A DNA stretch of 64,000 nt from an uncultured Chloroflexia bacterium (GTDB lineage: Bacteria; Chloroflexota; Limnocylindria; Limnocylindrales; CSP1-4): the NCBI GenBank assembly GCA_963698595.1, contig CAVORL010000006.1, positions 140,877-204,876 on the forward strand, given 5' to 3'. Positions 2,369 to 7,855 of this stretch are shown here, piece by piece. A model generated the notes under the pieces. It was not told the origin of the DNA and ran no database searches. It saw only the letters and a program-made list of their open reading frames with translations. The position numbers and the translations under genes are program-made. Numbering within the stretch: position 1 is the first letter of the stretch; every line of letters begins with the position of its first letter.

Positions 2369-2444
2369 GCGGGAGTAGCTCAGCTGGCAGAGCGGCAGCC
2401 TTCCAAGCTGCATGTCGCGGGTTCGAACCCCGTCTCCCGCTCCA
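2369..2444 (+). tRNA. tRNA-Gly (anticodon TCC)
   Basis: GCGGGAG/CTCCCGC acceptor stem, D arm GCTCAGCTGGCAGAGC, anticodon arm GCAGC-CTTCCAA-GCTGC, T loop GTTCGAA and an encoded CCA; 76 nt. Confidence 0.97.
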
Positions 2445-3103: not shown

Positions 3104-4018
<915 letters not shown>

Positions 4019-4086: not shown

Positions 4087-4941
4087 TCAGATGACGTACT
4101 CGGCGTCCTCGAACCCGTCGCGCGTGCGGCGGACCCGGAACTGGCTGGTCTGGTAGACGAGGGATCCGGGTGGGACGCTGCTCGTGAGGAACACGTTGCC
4201 ACCCACCACACTGTCCTCGCCGATGACCGTGTCGCCCCCCAGCACGGTGGCGTTGGCGTAGATGACGACCCGGTCGCCGATCGTCGGGTGGCGCTTCGTG
4301 CCCGCTGCGCTCTTGGCGACCGAGAGCGCCCCCAGGGTCACGCCCTGGTACAGCTTCACGTTGTTGCCGATGACGGCCGTCTCGCCCACGACCACGCCGG
4401 TCCCGTGGTCGATGCAGAAAGAGCGCCCGATCGTCGCCCCGGGATGCATGTCGATGCCGGTGCGCGTGTGGGCGATCTCAGCAAGGAGGCGGGGCAGGAT
4501 GGGGACGCCGAGGCCGCAGATCTCGTGCGCGATCCGGTGGATCGCGATCGCGAGGAAGCCGGGATAGGCGGCGACCACCTCGTCGATCGACTCGGCGGCT
4601 GGATCGCCAGCGCAGATGGCCTCCGCGTCCAGCACGAGCCGAGCGTGGATGTCGGGAAGGGCCTCGGCGAACGCATCGACGACCCGGCGGGCCTCCGCCT
4701 CCCCGGTCAGCGGCGCGATGAGCCGCCGCAGCTCGCGGCGGGCCAGGATCAGGCGCGCGGCGAGGTCTTCCGCGGTCGCCGTCGCATCATCGGAGAGCTG
4801 CGCGAACAGGATGCCCAGCAGCGCGTCGACGACGGACGCGACGTCGCGCTTGAGCGGGAAGAGCTGGCCGCGCTCCTGACGGCCGGCTGCGAGGGCCTCC
4901 GCGAAGGCGTGTTCGAGATCGTGATCGTCGCGGTTCGGCAT
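4087..4941 (-). CDS. cysE: Serine O-acetyltransferase (EpsC/CysE type)
   Basis: GDPAA, TGIDMHPGATIG, IDHGTGVVVGET, YQGVTLGA, KRHPTIG hexapeptide repeats. Confidence 0.93.
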   Translation of the reverse strand: MPNRDDHDLEHAFAEALAAGRQERGQLFPLKRDVASVVDALLGILFAQLSDDATATAEDLAARLILARRELRRLIAPLTGEAEARRVVDAFAEALPDIHARLVLDAEAICAGDPAAESIDEVVAAYPGFLAIAIHRIAHEICGLGVPILPRLLAEIAHTRTGIDMHPGATIGRSFCIDHGTGVVVGETAVIGNNVKLYQGVTLGALSVAKSAAGTKRHPTIGDRVVIYANATVLGGDTVIGEDSVVGGNVFLTSSVPPGSLVYQTSQFRVRRTRDGFEDAEYVI

Positions 4942-4957
4942 GCTGTTCCTTTCCGGG

Positions 4958-5470
4958 TCAGCGGTCCGTGTACCGGATGGATGCCGGCACCGTCACGCCG
5001 ACCAGTCGGTCGGCGCGCCGGAAGAGCCGGGCGAAGAGGGGTGGGATCCACCAGCGCACGACGTAGAGGCGGCACCCGACGCAGGTGCCCGTTGCCGCCA
5101 GGAGGACCTGCAGGGCGACGACCGCGCCGACCAGGAGCCACCCGACTGGCGAGGCTCCGACGCCGAACATGACGGCCGCGAGGCCGATCGCAATGGCCCC
5201 CAGGGCCTGTGCGAAGCGCGGCGGGTACTCATGCTCCGACTCTGCCGGCGGGCCGAGGCGCAGGCCCCGCCGGACGACCGGCCAGGCGCGGCCCGGCAGG
5301 AAGAAGCGGGTCCCGAACGCGGCCGAGACGGCAAGGTTCAGGCCGACGAGCAGGGCCAGCCACGGGAGCCCGAGGAGGTACGAGGAGGCCAGGATGGCGG
5401 CGGAAACGGCGGCACCGAAGCGCTGATGGCGCGGATCGACCTGGCGCGCGGGAGTGGCGACGATGGACAC
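4958..5470 (-). CDS. DUF4395-family membrane protein
   Basis: VDPRHQRF, PPRFAQALG and the TGTCVGC motif; several TM segments; GGAGG RBS before GTG. Confidence 0.85.
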   Translation of the reverse strand: MSIVATPARQVDPRHQRFGAAVSAAILASSYLLGLPWLALLVGLNLAVSAAFGTRFFLPGRAWPVVRRGLRLGPPAESEHEYPPRFAQALGAIAIGLAAVMFGVGASPVGWLLVGAVVALQVLLAATGTCVGCRLYVVRWWIPPLFARLFRRADRLVGVTVPASIRYTDR

Positions 5471-5590
5471 GGGAGGCCTCCGGGGACGCGGGACGGGGGC
5501 GCGGCGACGCGGGAAGGGGTCACCGGGGTGCGGCGCGCGAGGGCGCGACGCGAGTGGGAACCGCGAGGGCCCGCGCTGTGGGGCCGGAGG

Positions 5591-5683
5591 TCAGCGGGCG
5601 TCCGCGACCGTGCCCAGCGCCGGCACTCGCCGGGGACAGGAGCAACAGGCGCCGCTCGGGAGGCGGCGAGCGCGGGTCGACAT
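5591..5683 (-). CDS. Putative leaderless cysteine-sensing leader peptide (30 aa, MSTRARRLPSGACCSCPRRVPALGTVADAR)
   Basis: The ATG is 6 nt after TATGCT (5695-5690). Codons TGT TGC TCC TGT; stop at 5593-5591; directly upstream of DUF4395-cysE-cysK. Confidence 0.7.
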   Translation of the reverse strand: MSTRARRLPSGACCSCPRRVPALGTVADAR

Positions 5684-5740
5684 GACAGGAGCATAGCGCG
5701 GATGTCGAGAGGCCGCGTCCGGTGGACCGACCCCGGGCGC

Positions 5741-6220
5741 TCAGGCGCGAGGTGACGCCTCGATCGCCTCCCGAAGCCGCCGCAGCGTGTCGGGCACGGA
5801 CGCCCGGAGCTCCTGCTCGATGCGGCCGGCGGCGAGCGTCGCGAGGCCGCGCAGCTCCAACCCCGCCCGGACCGTGATCCGGCAGCGGCCGTCGTCGAGT
5901 GCCGTGACCTCGCACGAGGCGGTGAGGCCGAAGAAGCCCGACGACGCGGAGATGGAGATCGAGCGGGGCGGGTCGACGGCCTCGACACGGCCGGCGGACA
6001 CGATCTCGATGCCGCCGGGTCCCGCCGAGACAAGCCGGAACTCGTCGCCCGCCGTCGGTCCCTGCCCGGCGGAGGGGACCCCGCGTGAGGTCATGCTCGT
6101 CGTCGGTTCGGCGTGCAGGACTCCCGGCAGCCAGGCCGGGTAGTCCTCGACGCGGGTGACGACGGAGAATGCGTCCGCCGCCGGTGCGGTCACCTCGACC
6201 TCGTCCTCGATGCGGATCAC
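5741..6220 (-). CDS. SRPBCC/polyketide cyclase-family protein
   Basis: IEDEVEVTAPAADAFSVVTRVEDYPAWLPGV pattern and a C-terminal helix; TAGGCT 6 nt upstream of the GTG. Confidence 0.85.
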   Translation of the reverse strand: MIRIEDEVEVTAPAADAFSVVTRVEDYPAWLPGVLHAEPTTSMTSRGVPSAGQGPTAGDEFRLVSAGPGGIEIVSAGRVEAVDPPRSISISASSGFFGLTASCEVTALDDGRCRITVRAGLELRGLATLAAGRIEQELRASVPDTLRRLREAIEASPRA

Positions 6221-6499
6221 GTCCCCAGCCTAGCAGTGGCCGCGGACGACAGGCGGCCGGTGCGGCGCCGATCCGCGCGCCGGCCCGGTCCTCCAGCCCT
6301 CGGCCCTGTCGGCTACGGCCTGAACGACCGACTCCGGCGCCGGCCCGCGAGGAGTGCATGACGGGCCGCCGGGTGGGCCATGACCTTCGGTTGATGGCGC
6401 GCGGAGGCACCACCCGCCGATCCTGCCGAGGACGAGGCGACCCACGCCGGCCCGCCCCGTCGCCACCACGCCTGCTCGTGTCCCGACCTCGGAGACCCC

Positions 6500-7855
6500 A
6501 TGCCCCGCCTCACCGCGAAGGTGTTCACGGATCTCGCCATCTGGATGAGCGCCTTCGGGCTGCTCATCGGGTTGATCTTCCCGCCCTTCTGCCTCGCCCT
6601 CGGCCTGCCCTCCGAGAACGTGCTGACCCCGCTCTTCTTCGGGTCCACGCTTGTCGCAGGGCTGACCGTGGGCGCGGTGAACTTCGGCCTCGCGCGGCTC
6701 GTCGTCGGGCGGCGCCTGCGCCGACTCGCAGAGAGCATGCAGACGGTCGAGACCCAGCTGGCCGCGGCCACCGTGACCCACGATTGGGCGGGCTGCGACC
6801 CGGAACGCTGCGCCCTTCCGGTCGACTCCGCCGACGAGGTGGGTGCAAGCGCGGCGGCGTTCAATCGCCTGATCCGGACCCTTGCCCGCTCCCACCAGGT
6901 GGAGGCCGCGACCAGCGACTTCACGGCGGTCATCTCGAGCCATCTCGACCTGGACGAGCTCGCCGAGGCGTCGCTCGACGCCCTGCTGCGTCACACGGGC
7001 GCGTCGGCCGGCGCGATCCTCGCGGTTCGCGACGAGGAGCTGGCACCGGTGGCCGCCCATGGGTTGCGCGCCCTCGATCGCCTCGCCGCCAACGACCACG
7101 TGACCCGGGCGCTGCGCCGCGCGAAGACGGAGCGGATCGACGTTGATCCTGGCGACGCCCTGGTGGATTCGCTCCTCGTCGACCAGGTGGCGCGAGAGAT
7201 CCTCGTCGTGCCGATCGCGTTCAAGAGCGTCCCGCTTGGCGCAGTCATCCTTGCGGCGGTTGCCCCGTTCGGCCCCGACGTGCCCATGCTGCTCGAGCAG
7301 TTCCGCGCCGACCTCGGCCTGGCGCTCAACAACGCGCTGACCCATGACCGTCTGCAGCGCCTGGCCGCCCTCGATCCGCTCACCGATGCCTACAACCGCC
7401 GCTTTGGCCTCTCCCGGCTCCGCGAGGAGTTCGCCCGGACGGTCCGGACCGGGGCGCCGCTCGGGGTCCTGATGCTGGATCTCGACCACTTCAAGCAGGT
7501 CAACGACACCCATGGCCACCTGGTCGGCGACCGCATCCTGCGCGCGACGGCCGGCGCCTGCCGGCGCGTGATCCGGGAGGGCGACATCCTCGTCCGCTAC
7601 GGCGGCGAGGAGTTCCTCCTGGTTCTCCCCGGGGCGAGTCGGGCGGACCTCGCCGAGCTTGCCGAGCGCGTGCGCCGAGCGATCGGCACAGTCGTCATCG
7701 CCGAGGGCGACCAACGGATCTCGGTCACCGTGAGTGCCGGTGGCGCCTCGTATCCGGAGCACGACGTCGAGGCGTTCGAGGCTCTCATCGGAACGGCCGA
7801 CGCAGCCCTCTACGAGGCGAAGCGCGCCGGTCGCGACCGGGTCATGGTCGCCTGA
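6500..7855 (+). CDS. Membrane diguanylate cyclase (2TM-HAMP-GAF-GGDEF)
   Basis: DPLTDAYNRR, DLDHFKQVNDTHGHLVGD, RYGGEEF active site with an RxxD I-site (REGD). Confidence 0.93.
   Translation: MPRLTAKVFTDLAIWMSAFGLLIGLIFPPFCLALGLPSENVLTPLFFGSTLVAGLTVGAVNFGLARLVVGRRLRRLAESMQTVETQLAAATVTHDWAGCDPERCALPVDSADEVGASAAAFNRLIRTLARSHQVEAATSDFTAVISSHLDLDELAEASLDALLRHTGASAGAILAVRDEELAPVAAHGLRALDRLAANDHVTRALRRAKTERIDVDPGDALVDSLLVDQVAREILVVPIAFKSVPLGAVILAAVAPFGPDVPMLLEQFRADLGLALNNALTHDRLQRLAALDPLTDAYNRRFGLSRLREEFARTVRTGAPLGVLMLDLDHFKQVNDTHGHLVGDRILRATAGACRRVIREGDILVRYGGEEFLLVLPGASRADLAELAERVRRAIGTVVIAEGDQRISVTVSAGGASYPEHDVEAFEALIGTADAALYEAKRAGRDRVMVA

Follow-up and report, generated by a model that had tools for sequence, protein, structure and literature searches.

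A putative ribosome-read cysteine leader upstream of DUF4395, cysE and cysK in uncultured Limnocylindria

A conserved leader ORF ahead of cysteine genes

In a 64,000-nt stretch of DNA from an uncultured Chloroflexia bacterium of the order Limnocylindrales (contig CAVORL010000006.1, assembly GCA_963698595.1; the whole stretch is called the window and its genome G000 in the following), a short open reading frame (sORF) with three cysteine codons precedes the genes DUF4395, cysE and cysK and belongs to a conserved leader. We consider it likely, with a probability of roughly 75%, that this element is a ribosome-read cysteine sensor, i.e., a leader-peptide attenuator of DUF4395-cysE-cysK. The reading is built on sequence comparison, which points to conservation of the sORF and its Cys codons, to three conserved pairings in the leader RNA and to linkage with cysteine genes. 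The leader is a new sequence family and a relay-wired form of the known cysteine-responsive leader sORF. It would extend leaderless-sORF cysteine sensing from the Actinomycetota to a second Terrabacteria phylum, experimental proof having so far come from mycobacteria only, and it provides a predicted regulatory logic of cysteine synthesis for uncultured soil Limnocylindria. With 71 distinct members and a covariance model, the family has been overlooked by annotation pipelines and by Rfam.

All leader parts are given in window positions on the minus strand. A first-pass annotation of the window had described a 30-codon sORF at 5683-5591 in leaderless geometry, with TATGCT 6 nt upstream, and all of these elements are present there. 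In detail, the spacer CCTGTC (6 nt) separates the hexamer at 5695-5690 from the ATG at 5683, the Cys codons are TGT (5647-5645), TGC (5644-5642) and TGT (5638-5636), and the sORF appears in an ORF search once the length floor is set to 25 amino acids. It had also been stated that many genes use the same leaderless geometry and that TGT is uncommon, and both statements hold for G000 as a whole. The pattern TANNNT-Nk-(A/G)TG occurs 211 times at k = 6 and 124 times at k = 7, compared with 43-117 times at 19 other spacings, and the corresponding counts before ORFs of at least 150 codons are 136 and 77 versus 11-63 elsewhere. Therefore, leaderless mRNAs seem to be common in this Chloroflexota lineage. 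TGT makes up 12% of the Cys codons (240 TGT versus 1773 TGC, i.e., 240 of 2013) in long ORFs with a high GC content at third codon positions. The assembly contains a single copy of tRNA-Cys(GCA) among 53 tRNAs, and judging from this gene content the invariant UGU of the leader must presumably be read through wobble by this lone tRNA. It is speculation that a rare UGU read by wobble may tune the sensitivity of the sensor as a hungry codon.

The window sORF by itself could be chance, and a single ORF is without significance: 30-codon open frames are common in DNA as GC-rich as the window, and G000 has 109 leaderless-looking sORFs of 8-60 codons, 13 of which contain C-x(0-2)-C. We rejected a chance ORF on the conservation across 71 distinct leaders, as the sORF stands beyond chance because homologous leaders conserve it. 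The window peptide has no match in NCBIfam at E values up to 10. A scan of positions 4500-6500 against Rfam 15, also with E values up to 10, gave two chance-level matches (E 1.4 and 1.5), both far under the gathering scores and neither in the leader.

Distribution of the leader family

In a protein-based sample, DUF4395 was searched in 41 genomes and the gene was found in 15 of the 24 genomes of the same genus. All 15 loci carry an sORF of 28-30 codons about 100-200 nt upstream and keep the core C(C)SC-[PR]-RR-V-P; the first-pass annotation had named conserved Cys codons in orthologous leaders as the test of its proposal. None of the 10 DUF4395 loci examined in the sister family, whose genomes measure about 1.1 Mb, has such an sORF. 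An exact-pattern scan with a 19-nt core and one genome per species yielded at least 117 loci. Among the matches listed, 53 loci have the motif in frame, a stop codon 48-57 nt downstream and DUF4395 or cysE at a distance of 100-330 nt; one further pattern locus (L108) is incomplete at the locus end and is not counted in the 53, and the remaining matches listed are scattered chance matches in other phyla without cys gene context. The 39 of these 53 loci for which labels are displayed are all assigned to Chloroflexia, Chloroflexi, Chloroflexota or Candidatus Limnocylindrales. Over 300 nt, 13 of the 15 same-genus loci match records labelled in this way without a single difference. The NCBI taxonomy lists Candidatus Limnocylindrales under Chloroflexota. 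The host thus belongs to the Limnocylindria type of Chloroflexota, and the earlier assumption that the element lies outside the Actinobacteria holds.

A covariance model (R1) was built from the 53 leaders. At the order level it was positive in 34 of 151 genomes, G000 included; broken down by group, 33 of 108 genomes of the window's family were positive and 0 of 42 of the sister family, with 10 of 10 in the window's genus and 10 of 12 in a second genus. Target genes are often absent from the model-negative genomes of the window's family. In a phylum-wide draw, 6 of 151 genomes were positive, again including G000. The others were three genomes of the same family, one of another family of the same class with a full-length match (G272, E 3e-6), and G207 with a marginal match that lacks both the helix and the gene context. 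The leader precedes DUF4395 and/or cysE-cysK in 29 of the 32 loci found by the model, and it occurs in three gene arrangements, which are leader-DUF4395-cysE-cysK, leader-cysE-cysK and leader-DUF4395 alone. In 17 of the 53 pattern loci, among the matches listed, cysE-cysK follows directly without DUF4395. Some metagenome-assembled genomes carry two leader copies, one per operon (L078 and L093; L036 and L057). At one locus (L162, genome G141) the order is cysE, leader, DUF4395 and cysK, so that the leader lies inside the gene cluster. For the following analyses 71 distinct leaders were compiled from 84 matches, all of them upstream of DUF4395 and/or cysE-cysK. A full-text literature search on polycysteine, leader peptide and cysteine attenuation in combination with Chloroflexi or Limnocylindr- returned no paper linking them, while supplementary tables might list more taxa.

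Translation signals and Cys codons

An in-frame start codon (39 ATG, 32 GTG) and an in-frame stop codon (47 TGA, 21 TAG, 3 TAA) are present in all 71 leaders. A TANNNT hexamer ends 5-10 nt 5' of the start in 69 of them, and at 6-7 nt in 62. The sORFs are 27-36 codons long, with exactly 30 codons in 41 leaders, and encode 2-5 Cys per peptide. About 36 consecutive T lie directly 5' of the -10 hexamer of the leader at one locus (L012, genome G008), to be read either as an UP-like tract or as an artefact of the assembly.

The C-x-C codon pair is found in 71 of 71 leaders and CCSC in only 26, which makes C-x-C the family-wide feature. Two consecutive Cys codons, the criterion of Canestrari et al. 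(2020, 10.1101/834739), are present in the window and not throughout the family, because C-x-C is what the members share. The earlier reading of the element as a cysteine attenuator gains support from conservation, but the predicted sensor is C-x-C rather than a series of consecutive Cys codons. All 71 leaders have TGT as the second Cys codon; the first is TGC in 65 and TGT in 5 of the 70 that are aligned at this position. In the 16 distinct leaders derived from the model, the first is TGC in 10 and TGT in 5 (15 of 15 aligned) and the second TGT in all 16; the sixteenth leader is gapped at the first Cys codon in the alignment and reads C-A-C-L-C. Between the two Cys codons stands TCC, GCC, ACG, ACA, ACC, ATC or CTC, encoding S, A, T, I or L.

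The first Cys codon is fixed at positions 1 and 2, even though the bases that pair with them vary. Near the sensor, Pro/Arg and Val/Ala/Glu/Gly replace one another where the RNA model leaves the nucleotides unpaired. From one subfamily to the next, neither the N-terminal nor the C-terminal half of the peptide shows any relationship, and the sensor is preceded by a nearly constant number of codons. The Cys codons vary only synonymously while the neighbouring codon changes its amino acid, as would be expected of sensor codons embedded in a structured RNA. Such a pattern of variation would be that of neither a functional peptide nor an untranslated RNA motif.

Three alternative pairings in the leader RNA

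Hairpin P2 is formed by segments 1 and 2 of the leader. Its outer stem pairs 5644-5640 with 5615-5611 and holds the Cys codons in the 5' arm; its inner stem CCGGC/GCCGG pairs 5633-5629 with 5624-5620 around the loop GAGU. Over the 71 leaders, 88.9% of the cells are able to pair, compared with 30-55% after sliding of the partners. In three pairs both bases have changed (5 cells), for example as UGUAC:GUACG or as UACC:GGUG replacing CUCC:GGGG, and of 500 shuffles none reached the cell count and 20 reached the pair count.

Segment 2 can also take part in a long-range helix, in which GCGAG-NN-CCGG (5630-5620) pairs with CCGG-N-CUCGC (5574-5563) of segment 3. This helix and the inner stem of P2 are mutually exclusive. 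The GCGAG block is invariant save for one A-to-G change that preserves a G-U pair, CCGG is nearly invariant, and CUCGC is invariant in 54 of 54 aligned leaders, though it lies outside the search pattern. Pairing of the helix amounts to 93.4% of cells versus 16-53% when slid; compensation is seen at one pair, as CUGG:CCAG and CUGG:CUAG in two leaders, and once A-U is replaced by G-U. The many G-U pairs in the conserved pairings indicate that the strand folds as RNA. A DNA operator palindrome (CCGGCGAGTGCCGG) was considered as the main explanation and rejected, as the conserved pairings are rich in G-U, which is possible only on the sense RNA.

The third pairing involves the Shine-Dalgarno (SD) region, where aligned leaders share a conserved CCCGGAGG 5' of the DUF4395 start. 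In 37 of 47 leaders the stretch that pairs with the SD region begins after the stop codon and before segment 3, and the anti-SD and SD flanks co-vary between subfamilies (CUCCGGG:CCCGGAG, CUCCAGC:GCUGGAG, GCUUCAGC:GCUGGAGC and CCUCGC:GCGAGG). When the region from the stop to segment 3 was paired with its own SD window, the mean was -14.85 kcal/mol, compared with -12.88 kcal/mol for the windows of other leaders, and 0 of 5000 permutations reached the own mean. The 5' half of segment 3 and its flank are predicted to join in this SD sequestration. The first-pass annotation had pointed to CCTCCGG immediately after the stop as the complement of the SD. The motif is present and pairs with the SD in the minimum free energy (MFE) fold of the window leader, but it is exact in 8 of 16 same-genus leaders and thus a feature of the genus only; in leaders from other genera the anti-SD shares nucleotides with the 5' half of segment 3. 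The family-wide logic would run through the invariant CUCGC block, which that annotation did not contain. Taken together, P2, the long-range helix and anti-SD:SD share strands, each of them is conserved, and they follow a 1:2, 2:3, 3:4 pattern with the Cys codons in segment 1. In this scheme segment 2 comprises GCGAG..CCGG and the 3' arm of P2, and segment 3 the CUCGC block together with the anti-SD.

For each of 47 leaders a P3-type hairpin is predicted to enclose the stop codon, with a mean z of only -1.14 versus shuffles. In one leader (L065, 5925-5995) a perfect 20-nt tandem repeat, 3.5 copies of GCACGTCCCCGCGATCCTTC, lies just 5' of the SD, and the spacer is about 50 nt longer.

Proposed mechanism

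We propose that transcription would start at or next to the ATG at 5683 and give a leaderless mRNA, on which a 70S ribosome would translate the 30-codon sORF with the conserved C-x-C codons (here CC-S-C) located in the 5' arm of P2. As long as Cys-tRNA is in good supply, the ribosome would reach the stop and leave, and P2 (1:2) would re-form; segment 3 together with the adjacent anti-SD would then be free to pair with the SD (3:4), keeping the operon low or OFF. When Cys-tRNA is scarce, the ribosome would stall at the Cys codons and cover segment 1, so that the freed segment 2 (GCGAG..CCGG) could pair with segment 3, the anti-SD would be withdrawn, the SD would open and the operon would be ON. 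Restored translation would also shield the operon from polarity caused by Rho or RNase. What we infer is the site of transcription initiation, the stalling of the ribosome, the assignment of the structures to ON and OFF and a translational rather than transcriptional output. The sensing step appears well supported by comparison, and the output step, be it SD release, Rho or a terminator, is probably the weakest link.

The Cys codons of the window leader are not directly paired with the SD, and the Cys tract lies about 160 nt from it. A 30-nt ribosome footprint was moved codon by codon over 47 leaders, and SD accessibility was maximal with the A site on the first conserved Cys codon (0.30 versus 0.20 for the free leader). 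With the footprint over the Cys codons, the ensemble already contains the long-range helix, as enforcing it costs less than 1 kcal/mol in 26 of the 47 leaders. This agrees in direction with the earlier idea that a ribosome remodels a GC-rich leader, as masking raises SD accessibility, but the effect is small. In equilibrium folding the SD remains mostly paired, with a mean unpaired probability of 0.14 in the free leader, 0.24 with the mask and 0.26 with the mask and an enforced helix.

This small opening is one of several points that speak against the attenuator as proposed. SD accessibility also rises with the ribosome at the stop (0.27), which a simple model does not predict, and the whole window leader folds no better than shuffles (z -1.48). 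The scan of 4900-6300 found no terminator-like site, and nowhere in the window leader do three or more T follow one another. Furthermore, 54 of the 71 leaders were retrieved with a pattern in which 19 nt of the core were fixed. With a core that hardly varies there is little covariation, and the 5-bp GCGAG:CUCGC never changes on both sides. The shuffle and permutation counts suggest too high a significance, since the leaders are closely related. In the pattern-derived alignment alone no covariation was found, because the search pattern fixed the core, and RNAalifold on the 163-column alignment returned only an uninformative 7-pair hairpin of invariant columns. Ten divergent leaders examined have no T run of 4 or more, and a consensus promoter scan of 4900-6300 found nothing. 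The consensus scan missed the bulged terminator hairpin of a related leader (L190, see below), so that its blanks are weak evidence.

Alternative explanations

It is conceivable, if rather doubtful, that the same sensor has a transcriptional output and that the sORF governs Rho-dependent termination, or RNase attack, in the C-rich spacer, instead of or besides SD sequestration. The long-range helix plus P3 would then hide or expose a Rho loading site. Rho-dependent leader attenuators of the tna or mgtA type have a C-rich, G-poor unstructured loading region after the leader ORF. In each of 47 leaders the spacer behind the stop codon is rich in C and poor in G (mean C 0.52, G 0.27; median C/G 1.93, range 1.25-2.47), in contrast to the sORF with C 0.38 and G 0.37, and G000 encodes Rho (PF07497, RNA-binding domain, 105 bits). 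The lack of a U-tract terminator in the window leader and the weak SD opening predicted by folding fit a Rho output as well, a relative with a similar sORF (G044, locus L190) uses an intrinsic terminator, and Rho-dependent attenuation was proposed for actinobacterial Cys leaders in the available text of Seliverstov et al. (2005, PMC1262725). However, a ribosome stalled about 45 nt 5' of the stop would expose the C-rich spacer even further, so that extra structural logic would be needed, and the conserved CCCGG flank of the SD with its co-varying partner is more simply explained by SD sequestration. In the mycobacterial leader Ms5788A, termination was tested and excluded according to the part of the text available (10.1101/834739).

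Far less probable is a ligand- or protein-binding RNA, i.e., a riboswitch-like element or regulator site in which the ORF is incidental. The core TGCTCCTGTC..CGGCGAG..CCGG plus CTCGC is indeed as conserved at third as at first and second codon positions, UGU is invariant despite being a rare codon and unpaired in the P2 model, and the two alternative helices recall riboswitch expression platforms. But no Rfam family matches, and an RNA-only model fails on the start beside the -10 box (69 of 71 leaders), on three types of stop codon in frame, on length differences in whole codons and on Cys codons that change only synonymously beside a freely varying middle codon; likewise, the stretch 5' of the Cys codons is conserved in length and not in sequence. 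We attach hardly any weight to a functional small Cys-rich peptide, e.g., a metal- or redox-active partner of DUF4395, since the recurrent motif C-x-C-[PR]-R-R-[VAE]-P and the constant vicinity of a membrane protein with its own invariant CxxC are outweighed by peptide halves that are unrelated between subfamilies, by swaps tolerated where the RNA is single-stranded while the fixed residues are those with helix-forming codons, by the 17 of 53 loci (among the matches listed) with cysE-cysK directly behind the element and no DUF4395, and by short variants that stop 1-4 codons past the Cys codons.

Comparison with known leaders

The attenuator reading has parallels in well-known systems. In trpL and hisL, the position of the ribosome on regulatory codons selects between hairpins (1:2, 2:3, 3:4), and in both the leader peptide is translated from an SD of its own, while the 3:4 hairpin is a terminator followed by U residues. 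The leader peptide of the window, in contrast, is predicted to be leaderless, and segment 4 is the SD region, not a terminator. Among the ermCL and cat translational attenuators, as cited in the available text of 10.1101/834739, the output of ermCL is SD release; erm and cat sense a drug, whereas the window element is proposed to sense an amino acid.

The closest relatives in design are mycobacterial. The first-pass annotation had taken as its premise that leaderless poly-Cys sORFs act as cysteine-responsive attenuators in mycobacteria, and the available text of Canestrari et al. (2020, 10.1101/834739) describes exactly this. There, Ms5788A is a leaderless sORF of 90 nt (30 codons) with a 97-nt spacer, whose Cys tract pairs directly with the SD of Ms5788; the mechanism was established by start-codon, frameshift and compensatory mutants. 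Rv2334A precedes cysK1-cysE, and Ms5788A/Rv0815A and Rv2334A are called a "Cys ribulon" in the same text. According to the parts available, Shell et al. (2015, PMC4633059) were the first to note mycobacterial leaderless polycysteine sORFs, and a paper of 2026 (PMC13096801) describes four Cys attenuators of Mycobacterium tuberculosis. As far as these texts go, the window element resembles the mycobacterial sORFs in its putatively leaderless geometry, the place as first cistron of a cysteine/sulfur operon, the length of about 30 codons, the spacer of about 100 nt, Cys codons as the presumed sensor and a proposed role of a stalled ribosome in remodelling the pairing that would hide the SD. Just as the window element lies ahead of cysE-cysK, one of the mycobacterial members lies ahead of cysK-cysE.

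The differences concern phylum and wiring. The window element belongs to the Chloroflexota, and its predicted sensor is a C-x-C in the middle of the ORF with 2-5 Cys, whereas the mycobacterial peptides, as described in the available text, have a run of up to 8 at the C-terminus. In place of direct Cys-tract:SD pairing, the signal would be relayed through the long-range helix GCGAG..CCGG/CCGG..CUCGC, which is conserved in the family and represents a different wiring of the same principle. No sequence relationship to the mycobacterial members was detectable in a weak test, a search of the window peptide against NCBIfam.

Two further groups of Cys leaders can be compared, each as far as the available part of the source describes it. 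Brewer et al. (2021, PMC8632094) describe the uORFC-8-2 motif, an upstream ORF (uORF) with Cys codons and a terminator that precedes cysS in Rhodobacterales. Like the window element, this motif combines a conserved uORF with two highly conserved Cys codons within the first stem of a structured leader, and it is likewise interpreted as a case of ribosome-mediated attenuation. It differs in its tandem Cys codons, its intrinsic terminator with a U run, its target, a cysteinyl-tRNA synthetase, and its occurrence in Alphaproteobacteria. It is not described as leaderless in that text, and the window element has no terminator and would control biosynthesis genes. The leaders of Seliverstov et al. (2005, PMC1262725) are short ORFs with Cys codons before cys/cbs operons and likewise lack recognisable terminators; they are actinobacterial, carry Cys runs near the stop, and no conserved alternative helices are reported for them in the text available.

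Downstream operon and neighbouring genes

The coordinates of the leader parts and of the surrounding genes are compiled in Table 1. The first-pass annotation had named the downstream genes DUF4395, cysE and cysK, and the domain matches agree with this; the score of the cysE-like gene falls short of its NCBIfam cut-off. All three genes lie on the same strand as the leader, so that the sORF heads a cysteine-metabolism gene set.

Table 1. Leader elements and genes around the leader, in window positions.
Feature	Position	Strand	Basis or remark
-10-like promoter hexamer TATGCT	5690..5695	-	Read from sequence; putative leaderless geometry with the sORF start
Leader sORF, 30 codons, peptide MSTRARRLPSGACCSCPRRVPALGTVADAR	5591..5683	-	ORF search; TGA stop 5593-5591 included
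Sensor codons TGT TGC TCC TGT (Cys-Cys-Ser-Cys)	5636..5647	-	Conserved core is C-x-C at 5644-5636
Hairpin P2 (segments 1:2)	5611..5644	-	RNAalifold consensus
Segment 2, GCGAG-UG-CCGG	5620..5630	-	In P2 or paired with segment 3
Predicted hairpin P3 (GGUC-GCGG-ACGC-CCGC-U-GACC) around sORF stop	5589..5609	-	MFE folds, weakly supported
Genus-specific anti-SD CCTCCGG	5584..5590	-	Sequence; directly 3' of sORF stop; SD partner in MFE fold of window leader
Segment 3, GCGGGCC-CUCGC	5563..5574	-	CUCGC 5567-5563 complements GCGAG of segment 2
C-rich, G-poor untranslated spacer, sORF stop to SD	5484..5590	-	Possible Rho loading region, by composition
SD region CCGGAGG of the DUF4395 gene (segment 4)	5477..5483	-	Sequence; GTG start at 5470
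DUF4395 membrane protein gene, first gene after leader	4958..5470	-	PF14340, E 2.8e-23
Serine O-acetyltransferase-like (cysE-like) gene	4087..4941	-	Hexapep domain; best NCBIfam TIGR01172 cysE, 156.9 bits, cut-off 210.65
Cysteine synthase A gene (cysK)	3104..4018	-	PALP domain, E 1.5e-72; TIGR01139, 387.5 bits, above cut-off of 350.95
SRPBCC/polyketide-cyclase-type gene, directly upstream of leader	5741..6220	-	Syntenic in many homologous loci
tRNA-Gly(TCC)	2369..2444	+	Neighbouring feature
GGDEF diguanylate cyclase gene	6500..7855	+	Neighbouring feature

In G000 the covariance model finds the window copy only, plus one match at E 0.8. For 6 of the 12 other leaderless-looking C..C sORFs of this genome the genes downstream were examined. 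They encode dihydroorotate dehydrogenase, a glycosyltransferase, a solute-binding protein, thymidylate kinase, a class II aldolase and DnaX. A sulfur gene is not among these six, and nothing in these results points to a multi-locus regulon in G000.

DUF4395 and cysteine leaders of other design

DUF4395 is the commonest gene directly behind the leader, and this holds as well for L185, the sole match in another family of the class. The motif G-x-C-x-[GA]-C (CxxC), GTCVGC in the window protein, lies near the last hydrophobic stretch in 41 of 41 aligned homologues; the alignment comprised the window DUF4395 (4958-5470) with loci L002-L027 and L193-L222, and the motif was read from the printed alignment. 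The CxxC suggests a thiol- or sulfur-handling membrane protein. As the gene most consistently placed under the proposed cysteine gauge, and with an invariant CxxC, DUF4395 thus offers a lead on its function. The gene is also common beyond the class and occurs in 82 of 201 Chloroflexota genomes, a tally that takes in the unpublished G335, a genome used for no other statement here. In the wider Chloroflexota a sense-strand C-x(0-1)-C sORF lies upstream of DUF4395 in 10 of 30 loci versus 7 of 30 in an antisense control, so that no general association is seen outside the class. Two papers were found to mention DUF4395, both unrelated judging by titles and abstracts. Behind stand-alone DUF4395 genes, 10 same-strand ORFs were inspected, with no Pfam match in 9 and an EamA transporter in 1; most of them are probably spurious frames. 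The exception, at L145 (4119-5009), is an EamA-family transporter next to a stand-alone DUF4395 gene (PF00892, E 3.9e-29). The EamA family includes the cysteine/O-acetylserine exporter of E. coli.

Both model-negative genomes with a target gene carry a related short sORF, MTRPSGYTGRCSCLRRA before DUF4395 and MNSRAFACSCPRRPRRRR before cysE. The first of these, at L189 (1277-1340) in another genus, reads MTRPSGYTGRCSCLRRA-stop upstream of DUF4395. At L190 (1097-1300, genome G044, same family and another genus) the MNSRAFACSCPRRPRRRR sORF precedes a cysE orthologue and is followed by a 16-bp hairpin and a U6 run. Its promoter reads TTGACG-18-CATGAT with 6 nt to the ATG, again a leaderless geometry, and the covariance model missed this locus. 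By its sequence, L190 is a putative intrinsic-terminator design of the Cys leader. In another family of the class, Cys sORFs of the type ...TTTCCTCR-stop and MTSLRTHAACSCACR-stop lie about 170-190 nt upstream of DUF4395 paralogues (L219 and L220, in the stretch about 170-260 nt upstream); the ...TTTCCTCR-stop sORF is apparently SD-led.

Across the class Limnocylindria, DUF4395 is hence preceded by several unrelated Cys-leader designs, namely the relay, a short CSC-stop and a CC-T-C-R-stop. SD sequestration, an intrinsic terminator and short C-terminal Cys tracts in one class would form a natural series for the study of attenuator rewiring. We tentatively raise the possibility, to which we give less than even odds, that the primary and ancestral target of the gauge is DUF4395 and not cysE-cysK. 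If true, DUF4395 would be a core component of cysteine/sulfur acquisition that was repeatedly and independently put under ribosome-mediated cysteine sensing. In a few leaders of the cysE type (L147, L095, L119 and L125) the Cys-codon tract itself (UGCUCCU or CUCCUGUCCCCGG) has its complement in the SD region (AGGAGCAG or CCGGGGAGCC), an arrangement that resembles the direct pairing of Ms5788A.

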